A stretch of DNA of 64,000 nt from an uncultured Clostridiaceae bacterium (lineage in GTDB: Bacteria; Bacillota; Clostridia; Monoglobales; Firm-18). Numbering within the stretch: position 1 is the first letter of the stretch; each line of letters starts with the position of its first letter. The position numbers and the translations under genes are program-made. The notes beneath the pieces were generated by a model. It ran no database searches. It had not been told where the DNA came from and was given only the letters and a program-made list of their open reading frames with translations. Below are positions 3,004 to 51,619 of the stretch, one piece after another. The stretch is taken from contig CAZNKU010000003.1 in NCBI GenBank assembly GCA_964573775.1, forward strand, positions 2,997-66,996, in the 5' to 3' direction.

Positions 3004-4173
3004 ATGTTAGATTTCACATATAACACACCTACCAAGGTGTATTTTGGAAAAGGAAAACACAAAGAAGTCGGAAATATAATTAAAGAATACGGCTTCGACA
3101 CAATTATGATGCAATACGGTAAAAGCAGTATAAAGGCAAATGGTCTTTATGATGATGTTATGTCATCACTTAACGAAAATGGTATAAAAGTAATTGAAAT
3201 GGGTGGTGTAGAACCTAACCCTAAACACACATTTGTTCGTGAAGCCGTAAAGGTTGCAAAAGAAAACAATGTTCAGATGATACTTGCTGTTGGCGGTGGC
3301 AGCGTTATAGATTCCTGTAAATATACCGCACTTTCCGTTGCAAATAACTGTGACGTATGGGATATTGCAACAGGCAAGGCTAAGGCTACAAAGACTATAC
3401 CCGTAGGTTGTATTCTTACAATTTCTGCGGCAGGCAGCGAAATGAGTAAATCTGCCGTTATTACAAATATGGAAGAAAATCAGAAAAGAGGCTATGCGCC
3501 TGAAATTAACAGATGTATTTTTGCAATAGAAAATCCCGAGCTTACATATACAGTAAGCAAATATCAGACAGCCTGCGGTGTAGTTGATACTATGATGCAT
3601 ACCATGGAAAGATACTTTACAGTTGGCGAGCCTACCGACCTTACAGACAGAATATCCGAAAGTATCATAAAGGCTGTTAAGGACGCAGGTACGGTTGCAA
3701 TAGAAAAGCCTGATGATTATGAAGCCCGTGCCACAATAATGTGGGGCTCCTCCCTTTCTCATAACGGTCTTACAAACTGTGGCAGAAACCTATACCTTGC
3801 TGTACACCAGCTTGAACACGCACTTAGTGGAGAATATGACCATATTGCCCACGGTGCAGGCCTTGCAGTTTTGTACCCTGTATGGTGCAGATATGTTTAC
3901 AGGGAAAATACTTCACGTTTTGCACAACTTGCACGCCGTGTATGGGATGTTGTTGAAGCCGATGACGAAAAGGCTGCTTTAATGGGTATTGAGGCTATGG
4001 AAGAATACTTCAAATCTATCGGTATGCCTTCAAAATTAGGCGAATTTGGCATAACAGAAGATTGTATAGACAGACTTGCAGACCTTTGCACATTTGGCAA
4101 GACACGTACAATAAACGGCTATATCGAGCTTGATTATGACAAAGTAAAAGAAATATTCAAATTAGCTTTTTAA
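3004..4173 (+). CDS. Iron-containing (group III) alcohol dehydrogenase, butanol dehydrogenase/YqhD-like
   Basis: 389 aa with the GGGS(V)ID NAD(P)-binding motif (AVGGGSVIDSCK) and His-rich metal site segments (HxxxH: HQLEHALSGEYDHIAHG). Confidence 0.85.
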   Translation: MLDFTYNTPTKVYFGKGKHKEVGNIIKEYGFDTIMMQYGKSSIKANGLYDDVMSSLNENGIKVIEMGGVEPNPKHTFVREAVKVAKENNVQMILAVGGGSVIDSCKYTALSVANNCDVWDIATGKAKATKTIPVGCILTISAAGSEMSKSAVITNMEENQKRGYAPEINRCIFAIENPELTYTVSKYQTACGVVDTMMHTMERYFTVGEPTDLTDRISESIIKAVKDAGTVAIEKPDDYEARATIMWGSSLSHNGLTNCGRNLYLAVHQLEHALSGEYDHIAHGAGLAVLYPVWCRYVYRENTSRFAQLARRVWDVVEADDEKAALMGIEAMEEYFKSIGMPSKLGEFGITEDCIDRLADLCTFGKTRTINGYIELDYDKVKEIFKLAF

Positions 4174-4239
4174 CAACAAGATCCGAATGGTTGTGTCAGG
4201 TACTGTTAAGGACAGTTTTTTAAAATAACGAAAAAGAAT

Positions 4240-4870
4240 ATTTATGTACTTTTGGAGTCAAAAGTACCAAAAACGCGAGGGTTTCGATTCCCTCGCGCTC
4301 CTAAACGACAAGGGCTCTGCCCTTGACCCGTTCCGGGGGTTTCTTTATTTTATAAATTAATACTTTGTTCTTTCTGTCAAATCCAAAAAACTACAGGTCG
4401 GGGCTATACGAAAACTTATTTCGCTAGCCCCTAAAATCATTGTCCTGCAGCGGAAATTGATAACAATGATTTTTCCTTTGTTTTTGGATTTTCTGTTTGT
4501 GTTTTTTCTGTGACACAAAGTATCACTCAAGCAAGAACGCCGTAGAGTGAGGGATTGCAAATCGTTTCGAGGTTTTGAAAAAATTGGCGTAAAATTGCGC
4601 ATATCATTTCCCTCTGCTGCGGATGAGTCCAAATCTTTGATTTGGCTAACGAATCCCATGCAAAGGATGTCCAAGAAAACGAGCATTTGCGAAGTTTGAT
4701 TGGAAACAGCCGACTGTTGATGCGTAATTTTAGGAGTCAGTGCGATAAGTTCGCATATGACGACGGCGACAATTTTAAGAAACTGACGAATTACGAGTTG
4801 CTGACCGAACGTCCCGGCGCCGATTTTTTGCTTACTTTTTGTCGGGGCAAAAAGTAAGTCCCACGCGGAT
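4240..4870. repeat. Mosaic island A of short hairpin modules (M2 4537-4618, M1 4619-4716, M5 about 4717-4765, M3 4766-4863 and others)
   Basis: Long stretches are near-identical to 50871-51193 and 20372-20464. There is no credible ORF. Confidence 0.8.
4619..4716 (+). repeat. Module M1 copy A (about 95-nt GCGGATGAGTCC...GGAAACAGCCGACTG element)
   Basis: Matches 51075-51166 (+) and 20372-20464 (-) with a few substitutions and a variable 6-nt patch. Confidence 0.8.
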
Positions 4871-4938
4871 AGCGTAAAAATTAAAAAGGATAGTTAAAAC
4901 TATCCTTAAGGGTACTTCTCATAATTATTCGGATTTTT

Positions 4939-18199: not shown

Positions 18200-18252
18200 T
18201 TCTTTTTCCTCCGTTTGTTAATATATTATTTTATATTGTTTACAATCTCATT

Positions 18253-18280
18253 GCGGTACGTCGAAATCGCCGTACCCTAC
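18253..18280 (-). repeat. REP unit flanking the 3' end of RAYT-1
   Basis: The minus strand reads GTAGGGTACGGCGATTTCGACGTACCGC. The TAG of GTAG is the stop codon of RAYT-1. Confidence 0.8.
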
Positions 18281-18801
18281 ATATTATAAAAACAGTCCTG
18301 TTTCCATTTCAAAACATTTGTATCTATGTATTCCCAAATTTTACGGTAATCCTCATCACCGCGTATTATGTGATCGTGGAATGATGATTGGAATAATTGC
18401 CTTTCTTCCAAACCCCTTTTTCTGCACAACCTTGTTGTTATAGATTTAAATGCACATATAACATCGGAAATTGTAGGGCAGGGGCTTGCTCCTGCCGCCA
18501 TTTCATAATTAGAAATCAAAACATGTATGTGATTTGGCATAATAACATATTTTTCTATTTTAATTCCTTTATAACGTTCTTCCAATAATTCTATTTGCTT
18601 TCTTGCAATATCTCCATATTTTGTTAATATGTTTTCGGCAGGAGCAAGCCCCTGCCCTACGATTATATTTGACAATATACATTTTCTGTCCTTTACACAT
18701 ATTGTAACAAAATATGTTCCGGGTGTTGAGTAATCATAATTTTTTAATCTTGTAGACTTTCTATTTGGGAGTTCATTTACCATATAATTACCTGTTTTCA
18801 A
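18277..18801 (-). CDS. REP-associated tyrosine transposase (RAYT, IS200/IS605-like Y1 HUH family), copy 1
   Basis: HUH motif PNHIHVLI, a C-terminal Tyr-helix (YRKIWEYIDTNVLKW), and an N-terminus RLKNYDYSTPGTYFVTICVKDR. The likely start is M7 at 18783. Confidence 0.8.
   Translation of the reverse strand: MKTGNYMVNELPNRKSTRLKNYDYSTPGTYFVTICVKDRKCILSNIIVGQGLAPAENILTKYGDIARKQIELLEERYKGIKIEKYVIMPNHIHVLISNYEMAAGASPCPTISDVICAFKSITTRLCRKRGLEERQLFQSSFHDHIIRGDEDYRKIWEYIDTNVLKWKQDCFYNM
18473..18497 (+). repeat. REP unit inside the RAYT-1 ORF
   Basis: GTAGGGCAGGGGCTTGCTCCTGCCG. It encodes ..AAGASPCPT.. on the minus strand. Confidence 0.8.
18636..18660 (-). repeat. REP unit inside the RAYT-1 ORF (inverted partner)
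   Basis: CGGCAGGAGCAAGCCCCTGCCCTAC on the plus strand. It encodes ..VGQGLAPA... Confidence 0.8.
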
Positions 18802-18804
18802 ATA

Positions 18805-19662
18805 TCAAAAATCCAATTTGCTTTTAACAACCTCAACCGCATCTCTTGAAATATTGCATTTTAAAAGATATGCAGGAACTGTTTTAAACAACTTATTGTA
18901 AAATTCAAGCAAAAGGTCTGACTGCTTTTTAAACACGGATATAGAGATTTCTCTCATCATACGAATAACTGCCTCCATAGGCTCTATTTCAGTAATTGAA
19001 CATTCTTCTGCACGCTCTATAAACACCATTGCATGAAGGGGAGCAGACATATTTTTATTGATAAATGTCTTTCCTGCCCAGGGTGTACCAAAAGCATGAA
19101 AAACACCGTCCACACAACGTATTGCAGGCATATCGTCATTTATTATGACTGTTTCAGGATAATATTTTTGCCACAATCCTGTATGGGTGGACTTTCCTGT
19201 ACCTGAAGCGGCTGTAAAGGTTACAGCCTTGCCATTATGCATTATGGTGGATGCGTGTAAAACTGCACCGTCAAAACATCTTAACCCCTGTGCAAAAAGG
19301 TGACCAAGCACGTTAACAGCAGTAAGGTCGGGGGCAATTCCGAAAAGCTCTGTAAGGTCGCTGTATGTATAGGAAAAATCATTCCATTTTTTATTAGTTC
19401 TCATAATCGAAACAGTTTTATCAACCTCGGTTATGTAGTCATAAAAACCGCATTCTGTTTCCGTTTCAAAAAAGCTTCTGCCGTTTTTGGTAACAAAAGG
19501 CTCAGGTGTATTACGTACAATGGAATTGTTAAGCTCGAATTTAACAGATATATCCGTACTGTCAAATTTTTCAACCTCGTAATCCTTCATTCTTGAATTA
19601 AAATAATCATAATTTACACCGTCAACCGCAAGGTTTAAACCGGCAATTTTATAATATTTCAT
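18805..19662 (-). CDS. HPr-kinase-like (HprK C-terminal domain-like) P-loop protein
   Basis: The segment LHASTIMHNGKAVTFTAASGTGKSTHT...VIINDD parallels the HprK/P core (Walker A followed by a DD segment). The ATG at 19662 follows a GAGGT RBS. Confidence 0.65.
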   Translation of the reverse strand: MKYYKIAGLNLAVDGVNYDYFNSRMKDYEVEKFDSTDISVKFELNNSIVRNTPEPFVTKNGRSFFETETECGFYDYITEVDKTVSIMRTNKKWNDFSYTYSDLTELFGIAPDLTAVNVLGHLFAQGLRCFDGAVLHASTIMHNGKAVTFTAASGTGKSTHTGLWQKYYPETVIINDDMPAIRCVDGVFHAFGTPWAGKTFINKNMSAPLHAMVFIERAEECSITEIEPMEAVIRMMREISISVFKKQSDLLLEFYNKLFKTVPAYLLKCNISRDAVEVVKSKLDF

Positions 19663-19748
19663 AGCATACCTCGTAAGAAAAACTATACACATATATAATA
19701 CTATATTTTGATGAAATAAGCAAGGTTTTTTTAGTGAATAATTGATTT

Positions 19749-20371
19749 GATAAAAACGTAGGGGAGGGTTTCCACACCCTCCCGATAATATGTGCCTTTT
19801 GCGGGCGGGTACAGAGACCCGCCCCTACGTTTGTGTTTTCACATTTATTCGTAGGGTACGATGCCTTCATCGTACCGCATACATATACCTTTTCGGGCTG
19901 ATGTGGGCATCCGCCCCTACAATGTTGTTTTAAAAGATGTTACAATTAAAAAGAAACACAAGGTGTTTCTACCATAATTATTCATTATTAACTATTTGCA
20001 CTCATCCGTAGCGGGCACAGAGGCACCTCCCCTACGATGTTGTTGGTAAAATTGTAGGGGAGGGTTTCCACACCCTCCCGAATGATAAATGTTGTTGGTA
20101 AAAACATAGGGAGGGTTTCCACACCCTCCCGATAATATGTGCCTTTTGCGGGCGGGTACAGAGACCCGCCCCTACGTTTGTGTTTTCACATTTATTCGTA
20201 GGGTACGATGCCTTCATCGTACCGCATACATATACCTTTTCGGGCTGATGTGGGCATCCGCCCCTACAATGTTGTTTTAAAAGATGTTACAATTAAAAAG
20301 AAACACAAGGTGTTTCTACCATAATTATTCATTATTCATTATTCATTATTCATTATTAACTATTTGCAGTC
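19749..20371. repeat. REP array: 10 GTAGGG-hairpin units in alternating orientation, including a tandemly duplicated block of about 250 bp (19749-19999 and 20096-20357, period 347 bp) and a 7-bp microsatellite
   Basis: Units lie at 19758-83(+), 19801-28(-), 19851-78(+), 19894-920(-), 20008-35(-), 20054-80(+), 20105-30(+), 20148-75(-), 20198-225(+) and 20241-67(-). The heptamer TTCATTA has 2 copies in the first block and 5 in the second. Confidence 0.85.
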
Positions 20372-20464
20372 GGCTGTTTCCAATCAAACTTCGCCATCAC
20401 TCGTTTTCCTGGACATCCTTTGCATGGGATTCGTTCGCCAAATCACAGATTTGGACTCATCCGC
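20372..20464 (-). repeat. Module M1 copy C
   Basis: The reverse complement matches 4619-4711 and 51075-51166. Confidence 0.8.
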
Positions 20465-20493
20465 AAAAAAAAGACGGGTATAAAACCCGTCCT
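20465..20493 (-). terminator. Rho-independent terminator after the 67-aa peptide gene
   Basis: Minus-strand hairpin GACGGGTTTTATACCCGTC followed by TTTTTTTT. Confidence 0.65.
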
Positions 20494-20518
20494 TTAAAAT
20501 TTAACATTTCAATTTGGT

Positions 20519-20722
20519 TTAGCCTTCTACTGATGCAGGAAGTTCTTCTCCATTACCGTTACTTACTGTATTTGAGTAAATAGAAACTGCATAATCAGTA
20601 CTTGCTGTTCCATTCAAATAAGATTTAATCATCTGTTTTCTTAGGTTAGTAAATGAGGCTGCAATATCATTTGAAGATTTTAGATTTACAACCTTTACTG
20701 ATGGTTTTGTATACTTTTTCAT
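20519..20722 (-). CDS. 67-aa Ser/Thr/Asn-rich peptide with a KKYxKPxV N-terminus (candidate RiPP-type precursor)
   Basis: The ATG at 20722 lies 9 nt after a GGGAGGTG RBS that directly follows the stop of the upstream gene. The sequence is MKKYTKPSVKVVNLKSSNDIAASF... Confidence 0.5.
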   Translation of the reverse strand: MKKYTKPSVKVVNLKSSNDIAASFTNLRKQMIKSYLNGTASTDYAVSIYSNTVSNGNGEELPASVEG

Positions 20723-20739
20723 ACTATATTGCACCTCCC

Positions 20740-22095
20740 TTATTCTGTGTACTGTACTAAACGTTCTACTGTGTAGTACTTACCTGGTAAGTCAGTACCG
20801 TCACCAAGAACTGTAAGCTCTTTCCAAACCGGAGCATCTGTTGTACCTTCGTTGATTACAGGTGTAGCTTCGATATCCCACTGTGTAGGATCAAGAGCAC
20901 CTGTGTCAGCACCGTCAAACAACTGGATAGCGAAGTTAGTCTGACCTGTGTAAGCGTTAGCGCAGATACCAAGTTCTACAGCTTGATTTTTTGCATCCTT
21001 AGTAGTAACTTTTGTAGCATCCATAGAAACTGTACCCTTAGGATATGCAGTAATCTTAAGACCTGCTTTATCAGCGATATCTACGGTTGGAGCTGTTACA
21101 AGGAATGTAACTGAATCATACTCAGCACTACCATATTTACCATAGATAGGCTTAGAATCAATTGACATATACTGTTCCAAATCATTCTCTCCCGATGATT
21201 CCATTTTTCTATAAAGAGAAATAATTGCACCAGGTTCAAGAGTAATATTACCGAACATACCGTCTGTAATGTCGTCCTTATAGAAACCATTAACCATCAA
21301 GTTAGTTGAATTATTATCTAAAGTATTATAAATTGTGAATGTAGTACTATCATCGTTAAGTTCACCTGTTACAGAACCTGTTCTTTTTGTATATCTAATA
21401 CGAACGCTATCATAGTTGTTGTCTGTTTCATAGGCAGCCGCATTAACTACGAATGCTACAACATCATCAAGAGGAGCAAACGTCATACGGTTACTTGACA
21501 TGTCGCCGTCATACCAGTTAGGATCAAATCTACTAGCATTCATATTACCTGTTGGGGAAGCAGGAACAACCGTACCGTCAGTTTTAACATAGTACAAATC
21601 TGTTTTATTACCATTGTCGCCTTCGTTCATAAATGTGATACCTGTCAATACATCTGTGAACTTTTCAACGGACTGTATGTAGTCGTAAGGTGCTGTACCG
21701 CTTGTTGCACGAGAAAGTGTATCAACTGTAGATGTGAATTTAACCTTACCGCCTTTAAGGTCTGCATAAGCAGCAGTAAAAGTATCCATTGTAGCAACGC
21801 CATCCGCACCAACTGTAGCCTGGTCGATGTGAAGAATGTTTGAACCGTCTTCCAAAACATCGTAAGATGTTGTAGCTTCTTCACCTTCACCTGTTGTAAC
21901 AGGAGCAACGATAAGGTAAGAAACCATTGAATCTGCAGTACCGCCTGCGATTGCAGCGTTAACTGTAATGTTCTTTGTAGAAACATCATAAGTTGTTGTT
22001 ACATTGTATGTACCGTCAGCACTAACGGAACATACTGCGCATGTCATCACCAAAGTGAAGACAACCAAAGCTGAAATAATTCTTTTTAGCTTCAT
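20740..22095 (-). CDS. Secreted protein of unknown function
   Basis: 451 aa with a signal peptide (cleavage near SVSA/DG). It is Thr/Asp/Gly-rich and I recognise no motif. The ORF is strong and uninterrupted, and its codon usage resembles the SLH gene. Confidence 0.7.
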   Translation of the reverse strand: MKLKRIISALVVFTLVMTCAVCSVSADGTYNVTTTYDVSTKNITVNAAIAGGTADSMVSYLIVAPVTTGEGEEATTSYDVLEDGSNILHIDQATVGADGVATMDTFTAAYADLKGGKVKFTSTVDTLSRATSGTAPYDYIQSVEKFTDVLTGITFMNEGDNGNKTDLYYVKTDGTVVPASPTGNMNASRFDPNWYDGDMSSNRMTFAPLDDVVAFVVNAAAYETDNNYDSVRIRYTKRTGSVTGELNDDSTTFTIYNTLDNNSTNLMVNGFYKDDITDGMFGNITLEPGAIISLYRKMESSGENDLEQYMSIDSKPIYGKYGSAEYDSVTFLVTAPTVDIADKAGLKITAYPKGTVSMDATKVTTKDAKNQAVELGICANAYTGQTNFAIQLFDGADTGALDPTQWDIEATPVINEGTTDAPVWKELTVLGDGTDLPGKYYTVERLVQYTE

Positions 22096-22246
22096 TTTTA
22101 AACCTCCTTGAGTGTTAAAAAATTATAAAAATAATATTAATCATATTTTACAACTTTTTTACAGAAATGTCAATATGTTTTTTAACTTTTTTTTAAAAAA
22201 TATTTTTTAAGGGATAATTGTGGCAGAAACGCCTTGCGTTTCTTTT

Positions 22247-22274
22247 GCGGTACGATGTGGGCATCGTACCCTAC
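22247..22274 (-). repeat. REP unit flanking the 3' end of RAYT-2
   Basis: The minus strand reads GTAGGGTACGATGCCCACATCGTACCGC. Confidence 0.8.
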
Positions 22275-22282
22275 GATTATGT

Positions 22283-22774
22283 TTACATGTTGTTATAAAA
22301 ACAATCCTGCTCCCATTTTAAAACATTGGTATCTATGTATTTCCAAATTTTACGGTAATCTTCATCACCGCGTATTATGTGGTCGTGATAGGAACGTTGC
22401 CAAATAGATACACCAATTGTTTTTGTAACCATTATTTTAAATGAACGCACAATGTTTTCAATATTTACTGTAGGGGACGATGCCCTCATCGTCCCGTTAA
22501 GGACAATAATCAAATGTATGTGATTTGGCATAATCACATATTTATCAACCGTCACATTGTTGTATTTAATATTTATATTCTCAATGTACTTTTTGCATAT
22601 CAATCCACATTCAGATAAATTATTTTTCGGGACGATGTAGGCATCGTCCCCTACGATTATATTTGACAATAATTGTTTTCTGTCCTTTGTACATATTGTA
22701 ATAAAATATGCACCAGGTGTGGAATAATCAAAATTCCTTAATCTTGTTGGTTTTCTTTTTGGCAATTTTTCCAT
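22283..22774 (-). CDS. REP-associated tyrosine transposase (RAYT), copy 2
   Basis: 163 aa, paralog of 18277-18801, with HUH PNHIHLII and a C-terminus YRKIWKYIDTNVLKW. Confidence 0.8.
   Translation of the reverse strand: MEKLPKRKPTRLRNFDYSTPGAYFITICTKDRKQLLSNIIVGDDAYIVPKNNLSECGLICKKYIENINIKYNNVTVDKYVIMPNHIHLIIVLNGTMRASSPTVNIENIVRSFKIMVTKTIGVSIWQRSYHDHIIRGDEDYRKIWKYIDTNVLKWEQDCFYNNM
22470..22496 (+). repeat. REP unit inside the RAYT-2 ORF
   Basis: GTAGGGGACGATGCCCTCATCGTCCCG, with a 9-bp perfect stem. Confidence 0.8.
22628..22654 (-). repeat. REP unit inside the RAYT-2 ORF (inverted partner)
   Basis: CGGGACGATGTAGGCATCGTCCCCTAC on the plus strand. Confidence 0.8.
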
Positions 22775-22788
22775 AATATCATCAATTA

Positions 22789-24471
22789 TTATATTTTAGA
22801 TTTCGGGACGATGTGAGCATCGTCACATACGGTTATTATTTTTCCTTCATTTACAAAAATTTTCTTATCCATATACTCTTCCGCCGCATTTTTATGGGAA
22901 ATAAGTATGCAGGTTTTATCTTTAAGATTTTTTATGTTGCCAAGCATTTTTGCCTCTGTGGCAGAATCCAGTGCCGATGTAGCCTCGTCCAGAAGCAGGA
23001 CAGAAGCATTACGATACAAAGCCCTTGCAACTGCAAGGCGTTGCACCTGACCTTCGGAAATGCCGACACCGTTTTCACCAATTACGGTGTTAATGCCATC
23101 CGTCATTTCGGAAATATCGTCCCAAAGGCAAGCAATTTTAAGACATTCTTCTATTTTTTTGCTATCGGCATTTTCACCAAAAAAAACCACATTTTCCGCA
23201 ACGGTACCTGAAAGCACCATATTACCCTGTGGTACGTAGGAAAACAGATTTCTATAATCTGCACCGAGCATATGCTCGTTACCCTGTGTATCGGTAAGTA
23301 TTATTTCACCGCTATCGGGGCTGTACATAGCAAGCAGTAATTTTAAAAGTGTGCTTTTACCTATGCCTGATACTCCCGATATAAGTACAAAGTCGCCTTT
23401 ATTAATTTTAAGGTCTGTATTTTTAAGCACTGTTTCATCCTTATTATAAGAAAAGGAAACTTTTTTAAATTCTATGCTTTCAAAGTCTGTAATATCAACT
23501 GTATTTTTATCTTCGGCATATTGCACAATGTCCATTAGTCTTTCTGCAGATGCTATCATCTGATAATACTGTGGTATTACGGAAGCGATACCTTTAAAGG
23601 GTGACTGCACCTTACCTACAAGCTGTACCATAGCCATAAGGTTGCCGTAGCTTAGTGTGCCGAAGGCTATGCCGAAAGCACCCCAGCCAAGTGCCAGAAA
23701 GTAACCGAAGGTAAATGCAAATTCTGCCGCAAGGCTTGCCATAATATTATTGTTATTACGTTTTTTTAGTGCCTTATAGTTATTATTCTGTATGCCCTCT
23801 GCATGCTTTACAACTCTATGTTCATTTGCAAAGGATTTTATAACCAACAGGTTTTGTATACATTCCAGCATAAAGGAATTGCTTTTATCACTCCATTTGC
23901 GGCATATAAGGGTATACTTTTTAAGACGTTTGCCCCAAAGCATTGCACCTACACCGACAACTATACCAACAGCCGCACATACAAGTGCAAAAACAGGCTG
24001 TATAACAAGCAGTGCACCAAAGGCGGAAACAACGCCTGTTACAAATGCAAGTATCTGCGGAATTATGCCGATTATTGCACACATTACCACATCGGAATCT
24101 ACGGTGATGCGATTTAAAATTTCACCGCTGTGCATAGAAGTTGCGTGGGCATACTGCATATTTATTGCATTGGAAAATATCTGTCTTTGCAGTTTTAATG
24201 TATGCTTTGCAACAATATCTGCACTTATTTTCATATAAGAAAAGCTTAGCAAAAATTGCAGAATAATCAAAACGCCAAGTAATGTTGCGGATTTTATAAG
24301 TCCATCTTTGTTTTGTGCCACCGCAAAGTCTATTACACTTTTGGACTGCAGTGCAAGCACTACTCCACAAAATGAATTAAGTATTCCTACAATACTTATT
24401 ACGCAAATTCCAGGTATAGCGGGCTTTCCTATGCTTTTTATCCATTGGAGGACAGGATTTTTATTTTTCAA
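22789..24471 (-). CDS. ABC exporter, fused permease/ATPase (type I exporter; no C39 peptidase domain)
   Basis: 560 aa with 6 TM helices, then Walker A GVSGIGKST, the signature ISEGQVQR and Walker B LLLDEATS. The last 11 codons run into a degenerate REP (22804-22830). Confidence 0.85.
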   Translation of the reverse strand: MKNKNPVLQWIKSIGKPAIPGICVISIVGILNSFCGVVLALQSKSVIDFAVAQNKDGLIKSATLLGVLIILQFLLSFSYMKISADIVAKHTLKLQRQIFSNAINMQYAHATSMHSGEILNRITVDSDVVMCAIIGIIPQILAFVTGVVSAFGALLVIQPVFALVCAAVGIVVGVGAMLWGKRLKKYTLICRKWSDKSNSFMLECIQNLLVIKSFANEHRVVKHAEGIQNNNYKALKKRNNNNIMASLAAEFAFTFGYFLALGWGAFGIAFGTLSYGNLMAMVQLVGKVQSPFKGIASVIPQYYQMIASAERLMDIVQYAEDKNTVDITDFESIEFKKVSFSYNKDETVLKNTDLKINKGDFVLISGVSGIGKSTLLKLLLAMYSPDSGEIILTDTQGNEHMLGADYRNLFSYVPQGNMVLSGTVAENVVFFGENADSKKIEECLKIACLWDDISEMTDGINTVIGENGVGISEGQVQRLAVARALYRNASVLLLDEATSALDSATEAKMLGNIKNLKDKTCILISHKNAAEEYMDKKIFVNEGKIITVCDDAHIVPKSKI

Positions 24472-24502
24472 AATCTTTTCTCCCCTTTGTATAGTTATAA
24501 TA

Positions 24503-24648
24503 CGGGAGGGTGCAGAGACCCTCCCCTACGATTATATTTGACAGCAATTGTTTTCTGTCCTTTGTACATATTGTAACAAAATATGCACCCGGTTTGGAAT
24601 AATCAAATTTTTTTAATCTTGTGGCTTTCTTTTTGGCAATTTTTCCAT
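24503..24648 (-). pseudogene. Truncated, frameshifted RAYT N-terminal fragment
   Basis: The minus strand reads ATGGAAAAATTGCCAAAAAGAAAGCCACAAGATTAA... It is colinear with the RAYT-2 5' end but has a 1-nt deletion, and it ends at its first internal REP (24503-24529). Confidence 0.7.
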
Positions 24649-24677
24649 TATATCACCAATTTTTATATTTTGGATTT

Positions 24678-24761
24678 CGGCAGGAGTACCCACAGGGCAC
24701 AGGCAACCCTGTCCTACGATTGTGTTTTATCTTGCGGTACGTCGAAGTCGCCGTACCCTAC
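24678..24761 (-). repeat. Two REP-type units between the RAYT fragment and the S24 peptidase gene
   Basis: 24692-24717 has stem ACAGGG/CCCTGT plus CCTAC. 24734-24761 is GCGGTACGTCGAAGTCGCCGTACCCTAC, 1 nt different from 18253-18280. Confidence 0.75.
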
Positions 24762-24763
24762 GA

Positions 24764-25237
24764 TTATTTAGATTTATCTTTGCGTCTGAACTTCATTGCA
24801 AATTTAAATACAGACGGTCTTACAGGCAACACAAGGCACCACAAAAAGCTGTATATTCTGTACCAAAGACATTTAGTGCTATATTCCTTGCCCTTACGTT
24901 CAAAGGAAGTCATTACTGCCAATATATCTTCTTGCTTAACAGGATATTCTATGGCAACCTGGTCATCGCCGCAAAGCTTAAAACCAAGCTTGCCTTTGCC
25001 CACCACACGGTGCAAAACGTAACTTCCGTCTGCACGGCGATACAAAATTATATCACGCTTTTTAATTTTTTCTGCCCCTGCAACAGTAACCTTATCTCTG
25101 TTATTTATAAACAGGGGATACATACTGTTGCCAACTACCGTAAACTTTATTTCCCTGCCCATTTCTAAAAACGGCAAGGATATATTTACAATATCCTCCA
25201 TAGAGGTCAGTGAAAATCTACCAATTAAATCAGACAT
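24764..25237 (-). CDS. S24/S26-family (LexA/signal-peptidase-like) serine peptidase with a C-terminal hydrophobic segment
   Basis: GNSMYP Ser-nucleophile motif, downstream ..YVLHRVVGKG.., and a hydrophobic stretch IYSFLWCLVLPV. Confidence 0.65.
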   Translation of the reverse strand: MSDLIGRFSLTSMEDIVNISLPFLEMGREIKFTVVGNSMYPLFINNRDKVTVAGAEKIKKRDIILYRRADGSYVLHRVVGKGKLGFKLCGDDQVAIEYPVKQEDILAVMTSFERKGKEYSTKCLWYRIYSFLWCLVLPVRPSVFKFAMKFRRKDKSK

Positions 25238-25505
25238 CTATTACTCCTGCTGCCGCAAGCTCTTTTATAAATATTTTAATATCTCCTGCTGCAGTTTCTT
25301 TATCCACATCATATTCTTTTAAAACAGCTTTAAGTAAATCGCCTTCTGTTTTATCCTCTAAAAGCTGTAACCACAAAAATGCACTTACATCGTTAAGCAT
25401 TATCATAGAGCTGAAATCCAGAACATTGCTTTCGGTAGGTATTACAACGTAGTTGTCGGCAATTTCTCTTAGTTCAAAGCCAGGTTTGATTTTCAATACA
25501 TTCAC
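25230..25505 (-). CDS. PqqD-family protein (RiPP recognition element-like)
   Basis: 91 aa. The pattern ..Y.V.P.......MI.LNDVSAFLW..L....T...L........Y.VD.E.A..DI..FI..L...G is typical of PqqD/RRE proteins. Confidence 0.7.
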   Translation of the reverse strand: MNVLKIKPGFELREIADNYVVIPTESNVLDFSSMIMLNDVSAFLWLQLLEDKTEGDLLKAVLKEYDVDKETAAGDIKIFIKELAAAGVIDV

Positions 25506-38518: not shown

Positions 38519-38738
38519 GGACTTACCTCCATAAGCACACGGGAGTCGAACTCCGTGTGCTCAAATATTTACATAATTGTATCACAATATGTAGTATGTT
38601 GTCAAATTAAGGCATACAACATGGTAAAATCCATCTTAGTAGCTTTCATTTACATAAGAAAAAGGCAAAGCGATGCTTTGCCTTCAGACCGTCGAAAAAG
38701 TCGTTCTACCTCAAGTGATTTAATAATAATATTCAATT

Positions 38739-50118: not shown

Positions 50119-50529
50119 ATCCTCCCTATAATTCAGTCAAAAGCAAATGATTGTCAATTTTTTAACAAAGACATACAAGCCAATAAGGGTGAAATACCCA
50201 CCCTTTTCAAAAAAAATACAATATATTTATAACTTTTTACTATTATTTGTTCCCGAAAACCTCCGAGGATACATTACTACGAATTATAACACACATTCTG
50301 ACAAAATTCAATACCTTTTTGTTAAATTTTTATCAGGTTTTTTATATCTATTACATATTATTAAATATGGAACAAAAATTCCATGGTTTTGTGGCAATTT
50401 TACACATAGAGTTAATATTTGTGTATTTCAAAAAAGCTTTCTTTGTTACTAAAGATAATGCATTGATTAACATTACAAAGGTAACGCGATGTGGAGTGTA
50501 ATCTGAAGGACAGTAATTGTAAGTTACTA

Positions 50530-51193
50530 TCCTTTTTGGGTACTTAAAGATATAATAATGTCTCCGACGGGGCACTTTTTTTGAAAAAAGTACCAAAAAA
50601 ACTTCAAGTCGGTTCTGTCGGTAAGAAAATGTAGTTGCTCAGCTCGTAATTGAGCCGTCGGGAATATTCGCGACCTTTCGCTCAGAGTCCCTAAAACCGC
50701 CCGCCAGCAGCGGAAAATGATACGGGCGGTTTTTCGCCTCAATCAACATCGCTTTCGCATACATTTTCTAAACCTCCGCCACAGACTTGTTTTTTCGTAG
50801 GAAAGTATGTGGCACTGAATAAAGATAGTTTTAAAATTAAAATGTGGCACATACTTTCCCATAAGTCAACACGCCGTAGAGAGAGGGATTGCAAATCGTT
50901 TCGAAGTTTTGAAAAAATTGGCGTAAAATTGCACATATCATTTCCCTCTGCTGATGTGCAATTTTAGGGGCTCGCGCAATGGGTTTGCGTATAGCCCCGT
51001 GCGACAATTTTAAGAAACTGACGAATTACGAGTTGCTGACCGAACGTCCCGGCGCCGATTTTTGCTTACTTATTGCGGATGAGTCCAAATCTTTGATTTG
51101 GCTAACGAATCCCATACAAAGGATGTCCAAGAAAACGAGCAGAGCGAAGTTTGATTGGAAACAGCCCCTGCTGTCGGCGCAAAAGTAAGTCCC
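50530..51193. repeat. Mosaic island B of short hairpin modules (M2 50871-50953, M5 50954-51000, M3 51001-51072 plus 51167-51193 interrupted by M1)
   Basis: Module-by-module match to island A (4240-4870). Confidence 0.8.
51075..51166 (+). repeat. Module M1 copy B, inserted in the terminal hairpin of module M3
   Basis: GCGGATGAGTCCAAATCTTTGATTTGGCTAACGAATCCCATACAAAGGATGTCC...GGAAACAGCC. Confidence 0.8.
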
Positions 51194-51619
51194 CCGCGGA
51201 CAGCGGAAAAACTTGTTGCATTTTTAAATTTTGTATGGTACAATTAGTTTGCGACACAACTTAATAGAGTTACCAACATAGGGTGTTTTTTTGTTTTGGC
51301 AAAAATGCACGCTCTCTTTTACACGCTTATGTTGGTGTCTAAAAGTTGTGTCGCAGCAAACGAGCTGTGCATTTTTCGGTGTACGGCTTATGTCGTGCAC
51401 CTTTTTTATCTTATAGGAAATTACTACACATGTGGTGTATGTAATTTCCTATATTACACAAAAGTGCACCTTAATCCCCTCAAGATTGAGGGTTGATGCT
51501 TGCCGGTGGCAAGCGCCTATCAACGACCGTAGCGGACAGCGTAGACCAGGGGAGTTGATGTGTTTTTCAAAACACTTTTTTATTTATAAAACGTAAGCTT
51601 TATCATTGCGACTTGAAAA

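Follow-up and report, generated by a model that had tools for sequence, protein, structure and literature searches.

A dispersed, structured extragenic repeat of uncultured gut Clostridia in which one strand folds as a three-way junction

Two hairpins in a 64,000-nucleotide (nt) stretch of an uncultured Clostridiaceae bacterium (contig CAZNKU010000003.1, positions 2,997 to 66,996; hereafter the window) carry nearly the same loop and the same flanks on stems of different sequence, which raises the question of what kind of element keeps its loops while exchanging its stems, and whether the folding molecule is RNA or single-stranded DNA (ssDNA). As established below, they are parts of a dispersed, clade-restricted, structured extragenic repeat, the function of which depends on one strand folding as a three-way junction. 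Read from the sequence, the two hairpins, one in each of two repeat islands designated A and B, were as follows.

Hairpin A: 4434-4472, AAATCATTGT-cctgcagcggaaattgata-ACAATGATTT
Hairpin B: 50694-50732, AAACCGCCCG-ccagcagcggaaaatgata-CGGGCGGTTT

They had in common the 5′ flank CCCTAAAA and a 3′ T-run; the loops differed at 2 of 19 positions, and 6 of the 10 stem positions had changed, every change being compensated. An earlier note on this DNA had described the hairpins in these terms, and its description was confirmed on the sequence, as was that of its module M5 (4726-4765 and 50961-51000), in which conserved flanks surround two-tier stems of different sequence. With up to three mismatches allowed, the loop pattern was found at 4 sites in the window against 0.07 expected, which excludes chance; the two further sites, 4602-4620 and 50936-50954, were inverted copies. 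M5 and the hairpin turned out to be adjoining arms of one unit, termed H1 and H2, respectively, and since hairpins A and B belong to different subfamilies of that unit (F2 and F3), they look like one module in which the stem has been swapped.

The unit was a three-way junction of 95-140 nt with H1 and H2 as arms, closed by a helix, P0. The order on the folding strand was P0 arm, GTAAAA, H2, TTTTAG, H1, GACGGCG, and P0 arm, which in the orientation of hairpins A and B reads GCCGTC, H1, TAAAA, H2, and TTTT. H2 consisted of a variable stem of 7-8 bp and an invariant loop of 17-19 nt (TATCAWTTYCCNCTGCNG on the folding strand), H1 of a two-tier stem with the loop TAAGT, and P0 of 10-27 bp formed from flanking sequence that was unrelated from one subfamily to the next. 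At least 11 subfamilies (F1-F11) were distinguished, each possessing its own H2 stem, inner and outer H1 stems, and P0. Five parts stayed constant: the loops of H2 and H1, the four basal A-T pairs of the H2 stem, the junction TTTTAG, and the tail GACGGCG. On its 5′ side H1 was preceded by TTTTAG (TCAG in F5) and in no subfamily by GTAG. Folding produced the P0-closed three-way junction in all 18 subfamily representatives as well as in the window units. The comparison showed that the stems are free to vary while one defined strand still pairs, and that loops and junctions stay constant.

Four units were observed in the window, two per island and arranged head-to-head, the two F1 units lying inside a longer element of about 270 nt designated E1.

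Unit A-left (F2): 4379-4491, minus strand; P0 arms 4379-4391 and 4480-4491, H1 4400-4431, H2 4434-4472 (hairpin A)
Unit A-right (F1): 4571-4779, plus strand; H2 arms 4590-4602 and 4720-4731, H2 loop 4603-4619, H1 4733-4765 (M5)
Unit B-left (F3): 50648-50743, minus strand; P0 arms 50648-50657 and 50735-50743, H1 50660-50691, H2 50694-50732 (hairpin B)
Unit B-right (F1): 50906-51014, plus strand; H2 50924-50965 with stem TTGCACAT and loop ATCATTTCCCTCTGCTG, H1 50967-50998 (M5)

With the covariance model described below, cmsearch gave unit A-left 79.5 bits on the minus strand, where RNAfold predicted -40.1 kcal/mol (z = -7.1) against -34.9 on the plus strand. Unit B-left scored 70.1 bits, also on the minus strand, and folded as a three-way junction at -38.4 kcal/mol (z = -3.1), while unit B-right scored 89.9 bits on the plus strand; unit A-right gave split matches (4586-4675 and 4721-4774), and its E1 aligned to that of island B. 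The earlier note had joined its modules into a composite of about 230 nt repeated at two loci. That composite was incomplete: in each island two different units, with 250-340 nt for each member, are paired head-to-head and accompanied by additional hairpin modules.

A collection of species-representative genomes was scanned with a degenerate H2 loop pattern, which yielded 43 loci; 8 were chance matches without a stem and 35 were real. All 35 real loci (designated by L numbers) came from uncultured "Clostridia bacterium" metagenome-assembled genomes (MAGs) of animal and human guts, representing about 12 species. A covariance model built from 26 copies identified 53 units (46 distinct) across the window and the fetched loci, scoring 56-104 bits on one strand; matches to the opposite strand, where they occurred, reached only 14-20 bits. 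The copies were all intergenic and numbered at least 15 in the fragmentary MAG JAZQIO, in which E1 was also present, and at least 12 in MAG JAZORN; they often lay at contig ends, as expected of a repeat that breaks assemblies. A metagenome collection contained three real loci only, all of the F5-F4 pair type, and the plasmid, phage, and viral-contig collections contained no unit match. The whole window had no match in Rfam 15 at gathering thresholds, and when both islands were searched at E up to 10 the best sub-threshold matches (E at least 0.14) were unconvincing; ARAGORN predicted no tRNA or tmRNA gene in the window. No gene recurred beside the units apart from syntenic housekeeping genes, and no transposase adjoined them. 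These results showed a dispersed extragenic repeat, present in tens of copies per genome and confined to a clade of uncultured gut Clostridia.

Covariation was measured on the 46 distinct copies in an alignment fitted to the covariance model. Standard pairs were formed by 97.6% of the stem cells versus 72.7% in column shuffles, a value reached by 0 of 500 shuffles, and 16 of the 19 pairs had changed on both sides, giving 209 compensated cells versus 65 in shuffles; these cell counts overstate the number of independent events because many copies are recent duplicates, which weakens the case to that extent and makes the approximately 11 subfamilies the safer count. Pairing was only 32-51% when partner columns were slid by 1-3 positions, and RNAalifold, run on an independent MAFFT alignment, recovered the same pair of helices and found compensation in 14 of 21 pairs. 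The non-Watson-Crick stem cells comprised, on one strand, 36 G.U in six columns versus a single A.C, and all 36 would be mismatches on the complementary strand; this 36:1 ratio indicates that folding occurs in that strand in a single-stranded state. By RNAfold, the folding strand was lower in energy by 4-21 kcal/mol in 15 of the 18 subfamily representatives and nearly equal to its complement in three. The folding strand was the minus strand for hairpins A and B and the plus strand for both right-hand units. Selection on structure, which the earlier note had proposed from the two islands, is therefore strongly supported, and it acts on one strand; the covariation that it had suggested looking for in further copies was present, and the opposite outcome, an absence of covariation that would leave plain diverged terminators, did not occur.

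Those data also bear on an alternative, that the hairpins are diverged intrinsic terminators or chance palindromes with a functionless loop. Terminators would fit with the A-run and T-run on either side of H2, with the position of the islands at the ends of genes, and with the GC-rich sequence of one stem (CCGCCCG). However, the H2 loop is 17-19 nt long, the stem of hairpin A is AT-rich, and a terminator scan called neither hairpin; the orientation of units to genes was mixed, the four loop sites far exceeded the 0.07 expected by chance, and the loops, TTTTAG, and the tail stayed constant over about 12 MAG species while three helices covaried. Covariation and conservation together refute this explanation, which retains hardly any probability.

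A further alternative is that the H2 loop is a double-stranded DNA (dsDNA) site, either a recombinase or invertase core or an operator, such that paired units invert or recombine and the palindromic arms are incidental. In its favor, the paired H2 loops form inverted repeats of 17-19 bp lying 170-330 bp apart, and in L024 and L026 an F4 unit lies beside the same gene in opposite orientations. Such a site nevertheless gives no reason for compensation in three separate helices or for the excess of G.T over A.C (36:1), and no recombinase gene was found adjacent to the units. In sites of the lox/FRT type the arms are conserved and the spacer varies; the units do the reverse. Because of the strand asymmetry and the variable arms, a lox-like dsDNA site or inverton was rejected and is considered very improbable. 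A coding origin was also considered, given an open reading frame (ORF) that runs through some E1 copies (for example 4357-4686 on the minus strand, and in L016); it was discarded, as 1-nt indels break the frame and compensation between arms has no coding rationale.

Adjacent units were head-to-head, with folding strands diverging from a short centre, in all 14 pairs of the genome loci and all 3 of the metagenome loci; in L015 two units lay in tandem, separated by about 400 nt. No pair combined units of one subfamily (the combinations were F5-F4, F2-F1, F3-F1, F2-F3, and F10-F9), and the orientation of units to neighbouring genes was mixed. The islands were mosaics in which units of F1-F5, the hairpin modules a, b, c, and T, and a central hairpin recurred in similar orders across loci and species. 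In the window these parts were located as follows.

Modules a, b, and c: 4246-4324, minus strand, downstream of unit A-left on the folding strand
Hairpin a: 4310-4324, minus strand
Hairpin b: 4274-4297, minus strand; loop AATCGAAA, followed by TTTTT at 4269-4273
Hairpin c: 4246-4267, minus strand
E1 copy A-right (F1): 4537-4880, plus strand; leader ACGCCGTAGAG, unit 4571-4779, interleaved helices at about 4815-4860, tail GCGGATAGCGTAAAAA
T hairpin of island A: 4886-4907, minus strand; AAGGATAGTT..AACTATCCTT and a T-run, at the outer edge, facing the incoming transcription of the neighbouring gene
T hairpin of island B: 50506-50534, plus strand; AAGGACAGTAATTG..TTACTATCCTT and TTTTT, at the outer edge
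E1 copy B-right (F1): 50871-51212, plus strand; unit 50906-51014, tail GCGGACAGCGGAAAAAC

Hairpin b, with an invariant loop and a covarying GC-rich stem followed by TTTTTGG, fits the definition of an intrinsic terminator, and a terminator-like structure was called here on the minus strand at 4304-4267. Among the scored copies, it occurred on the same strand 86-96 nt downstream of the unit in 4 of 4 F2, 6 of 6 F5, 1 of 1 F7, and 1 of 12 F4 units. At the outer edge of E1, T hairpins or terminators pointed inward against antisense entry in 6 of 12 F1 copies; the T hairpin of island A was called as terminator-like on the minus strand (4907-4886) and has homologues bordering E1 copies in other loci, and that of island B was scored as a terminator opposing the folding strand of unit B-left.

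Several observations were made on the modules themselves. Modules a, b, and c of the window and of L010, L025, L030, L032, and L036 had constant loops and swapped stems, the stem of hairpin b being CGCGAGGG, CGGGGG, or GTGGGGG depending on the copy, always with the same loop, and that of hairpin c GTACTTTTG or GCCATTTTG. The loop of hairpin c apparently pairs with sequence preceding b, as CUCC/GGAG in the window and CACC/GGUG in L025. The 3′ part of E1 contained interleaved helices of the form A-B-A′-B′, GGCGCCGA .. GCTTACTTTTG - TCGGCGC - CAAAAGTAAG, at 4815-4860 in the window with equivalents in L005, L008, L011, L015-L019, L033, and L034. The A/A′ pairing covaried in three variants (CGCCGA/TCGGCG, GGTGGG/CCCAC, and CCGT/ACGG), and the arrangement represents either a pseudoknot or two mutually exclusive hairpins. 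The E1 tail GACAGCGGAAAAA (4865-4880 and 51198-51212) was an inverted repeat of the H2 loop core CAGCGGAAA, the two being complementary over 9-10 nt on one strand, and the tail remained constant when the loop changed. The H2 loop is complementary to the E1 leader (GAGGGA) and tail (CAGCGGAAA), but long-range pairing with either was rejected, as neither covaries when CCCTC becomes CCGC in the loop. The centre of island B (50801-50860) was a long near-perfect palindrome, GGAAAGTATGTGGCAC ... GTGGCACATACTTTCC, and its half-site TGGCAC-N5-TTCC recurred upstream of some E1 copies in other loci; this motif resembles a sigma-54 site but was dismissed as one, because its -12 box has no GC and L027 does not carry it.

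The favored reading is that this is a new structured extragenic repeat, similar to repetitive extragenic palindromes (REPs) and bacterial interspersed mosaic elements (BIMEs), whose folded molecule is more likely RNA than an ssDNA substrate of a Y1/HUH enzyme; an RNA from the G.U-tolerating strand was assigned a probability of roughly 0.5. It is indicated by the terminator-like hairpin at a fixed distance on the wobble-favored strand, the inward-facing terminators, and the elaborate architecture, in which a junction and a long invariant loop are combined with interleaved helices. In several subfamilies the RNA would end at the terminator-like hairpin about 90 nt downstream, outward-facing terminators would block antisense read-through, and contacts with a protein or another nucleic acid would be made by the H1 loop and the invariant, C/U-rich loop of H2. 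Some findings weigh against an RNA. G.T wobble is tolerated in folded ssDNA too, so that the strand asymmetry cannot separate the two molecules; F1 units had no terminator on the folding strand; no sigma-70-type promoter was conserved upstream of the units, such sites being no commoner than in shuffles; and the centres of the unit pairs are themselves hairpins. Moreover, in its high copy number, truncations, nested insertions, and head-to-head dimers the family resembles mobile DNA repeats such as REPs and BIMEs, the TTAG and CGTC motifs resemble REP tags, and the genome encodes REP-associated tyrosine transposases (RAYTs).

The last points lead to the main competing explanation, that the unit is a REP-like ssDNA substrate copied or maintained by a Y1/HUH enzyme (a RAYT or an IS200-like protein acting in trans), with H1 and its 5′ TTAG tag, or CGTC on the other strand, as the equivalent of the REP hairpin. 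The window indeed encodes two RAYT-like Y1_Tnp proteins and one fragment in a cluster at 18250-25240 (two minus-strand ORFs, 18277-18801 and 22283-22774, with 54% identity to each other; fragment at 24485-24646). The REPs of this genome are likewise variable-stemmed, TTTTAG 5′ of H1 resembles the GTAG tag, the alpha type of H1 (TTAGGGGC...GCCCCG) resembles the local REPs (GTAGGGGC...GCCCG), and CGTC/GACG lies beside H1 in most subfamilies. Strand asymmetry fits one active strand, the units are dispersed, multi-copy, and often at contig ends, and GTAG and CGTC REPs are known to form head-to-head dimers and to be nested in long palindromes (PMC3733652).

Nevertheless, the link to RAYTs that the earlier note had suggested found no support in the available tests. 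The RAYT genes of the window were bordered by GTAGGG hairpins and not by units, no unit lay inside their cluster, and tblastn with the window RAYTs against all unit loci gave no match outside the window. Neither a RAYT nor another Y1 gene was found in any of the fetched unit-bearing loci, no protein family recurred beside the units, and the 60 kb sampled of JAZORN contained at least 12 units and no GTAGGG repeat. In addition, the unit is far larger and more complex in build than described REPs, with its three-way junction, invariant 18-nt loop, and terminator-like hairpin at a fixed distance, and a cleavage site, target motif, and clean insertion boundary could not be defined. A HUH substrate is regarded as less probable than an RNA. 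The RNA and HUH readings are not fully exclusive, since a mobile repeat can also act in transcripts.

As to the RAYT/REP cluster itself, 17 GTAGGG-tagged hairpins with variable stems were counted in the window, concentrated at 18.2-24.8 kb, with a similar one at 38735, and a 235-nt segment was duplicated there at 99% identity (19762-19996 and 20109-20343).

Comparison with known systems placed the unit, in its organisation, nearest to REPs, BIMEs, and REPINs, elements linked to RAYT transposases, which are also extragenic and multi-copy, have compensated variable stems, and form inverted pairs, conserved linkers, and mosaic islands. The islands consisted of alternating palindromic units with conserved linkers, as BIMEs do, and the units were high-copy, extragenic, and inversely paired, as RAYT-associated REPs are. 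A short conserved motif precedes a hairpin on one strand in both cases (TTAG in the unit, GTAG in REPs), and RAYTs occur in the same genome. Unlike GTAG-type REPs, which are hairpins of 20-40 nt, the unit is a three-way junction of 95-140 nt with conserved loops and without a GTAG tag, and the repeat that flanks the local RAYT genes is GTAGGG. Since the members of a pair belong to different subfamilies, no long hairpin of the REPIN type is possible.

The REPs with a CGTC tag have an unpaired CGTC, a single stem of 8-9 bp starting with A-T pairs, a loop of 4-5 nt, and a CCA-like tail (Di Nocera et al. 2013, PMC3733652). Most are found in Alphaproteobacteria; they lack a second hairpin, and no dedicated transposase is known for them; head-to-head dimers predominate among them, and some families are nested in long palindromes (PMC3733652). 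The unit agrees with them in part, having CGTC beside H1 on the non-folding strand in most subfamilies, a 5-nt loop, a short CC tail, head-to-head dimers, and likewise no known dedicated transposase. The agreement is incomplete in that H1 has a two-tier stem without the A-T start, CGTC lies partly within the outer stem, and a junction surrounds H1, which forms just one of its arms.

Correia/NEMIS of Neisseria, BOX and RUP of pneumococci, and ERIC of enterobacteria are transcribed repeats that fold as RNA and resemble miniature inverted-repeat transposable elements (MITEs). Like them, the unit belongs to modular, intergenic elements of 100-300 nt with variable module combinations, and P0 resembles their long terminal inverted repeats, which pair in the transcripts. 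In those families, however, the terminal inverted repeats are conserved and target-site duplications are seen, whereas P0 differs between subfamilies, the interior is conserved, similarity extends beyond P0, and no duplication was found in the one filled/empty pair compared. Constant loops and junctions, covarying helices, a terminator-like 3′ hairpin, the lack of a protein partner, and restriction to one uncultured clade recall the orphan "motif" RNAs of Rfam, although the unit has a much higher copy number and, with its truncated, nested, and paired copies, resembles mobile DNA.

A likely way in which stems are exchanged was seen at an orthologous locus, L027 of MAG JAZQIO, which is syntenic with 47-55.6 kb of the window at 87-91% identity. 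E1 of island B was present there with module X, an insertion described below, at the same site, and the left-hand unit was absent. Compared with unit B-right, the 97 nt to the left of H1 were identical and the approximately 168 nt to the right differed at about 5 positions, whereas the 32-nt H1 differed at 13 positions and was exactly the island A variant. This indicates cassette exchange (gene conversion) rather than stepwise compensation in place, and gene conversion would shuffle variants between copies. Throughout E1, H1 excepted, long stretches were 98-100% identical versus 87-91% in the flanks (window 50871-51212 against about 4050-4601 on the reverse strand of L027). No target-site duplication was found at the sole filled/empty comparison (island B versus L027), a pair blurred by local divergence in which insertion boundaries are not definable. 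An origin of the stems from the target by inverted duplication was rejected, as H2 stems differ between copies within the same surrounding element. Truncated copies occurred, for example in L023, and the case of L003 was explained by deletion between short direct repeats.

Module X was an insertion of about 100 nt, CGGATGAG...GAAACAGCC..CTG, with three copies in the window, each following YTG and lying in a hairpin loop or past a terminator; the copies were recognised as repeat families D12, I1, and I2.

Module X, copy 1: 4620-4719, plus strand, 100 nt long, interrupting the H2 loop of unit A-right
Module X, copy 2: 51076-51173, plus strand, in the loop of the E1 hairpin GCTTACTT..AAGTAAG
Module X, copy 3: 20367-20470, minus strand, right after a terminator hairpin inside the RAYT/REP cluster

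The island B counterpart of the H2 loop split by copy 1 was uninterrupted (ccctctgctgatgtgc), and an intact form of the E1 hairpin that holds copy 2 was seen in island A (4830-4860), L034, and L017. The module had weak terminal inverted repeats, CGGATGAGTCCAAATC and GATTGGAAACAGCCG, and the same E1 site was occupied in L021 and L027. At about 19992-20008 on the minus strand, CGGATGAGT abuts GCAAATAG, which looks like module X minus its interior. An HH9 hammerhead match on module X (Rfam, E = 1.3) was rejected for want of a catalytic core. An element of about 400 nt with 20-bp terminal inverted repeats, TAACCATCGAAGGACTATCC / GGATAATCCTTCGATGGTTA, occupied the H1 loop of an F4 unit in L026 (about 300-700). 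Taken with module X, this insertion suggests that the hairpin loops of the islands are preferred insertion targets. An unrelated direct repeat of 95 nt (864-958 and 1066-1160, 97% identity) ended in a terminator-like hairpin, GAAATCCGTATG..CATACGGATTTC.

Compensated stems are known from other extragenic repeats of bacteria, but for few of these families have the active molecule and the reason for selection on structure been settled. The signal here is unusually clear, with covariation of three helices over at least 11 subfamilies, invariant loops, and no ambiguity as to the strand, and the separate GTAG-REP/RAYT system in the same genome allows two repeat systems to be compared side by side. 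The repeat also has a practical side, as it breaks short-read MAG assemblies and many copies end contigs. A further, tentative proposal is that the unit may be the core of an undescribed multi-copy class of structured RNA of about 250 nt, composed of the three-way junction with its invariant 18-nt C/U-rich loop, a spacer, and an intrinsic terminator, and spread as head-to-head gene pairs through this clade of gut Clostridia; it might be a self-spreading non-coding RNA family or the substrate of an unrecognised mobilising enzyme distinct from that of the GTAG-REP/RAYT system. If the folded molecule is RNA, the repeat would represent a new abundant structured RNA class of rumen and gut Clostridia; if it is a HUH substrate, the known substrate shape would be widened from simple hairpins to three-way junctions.

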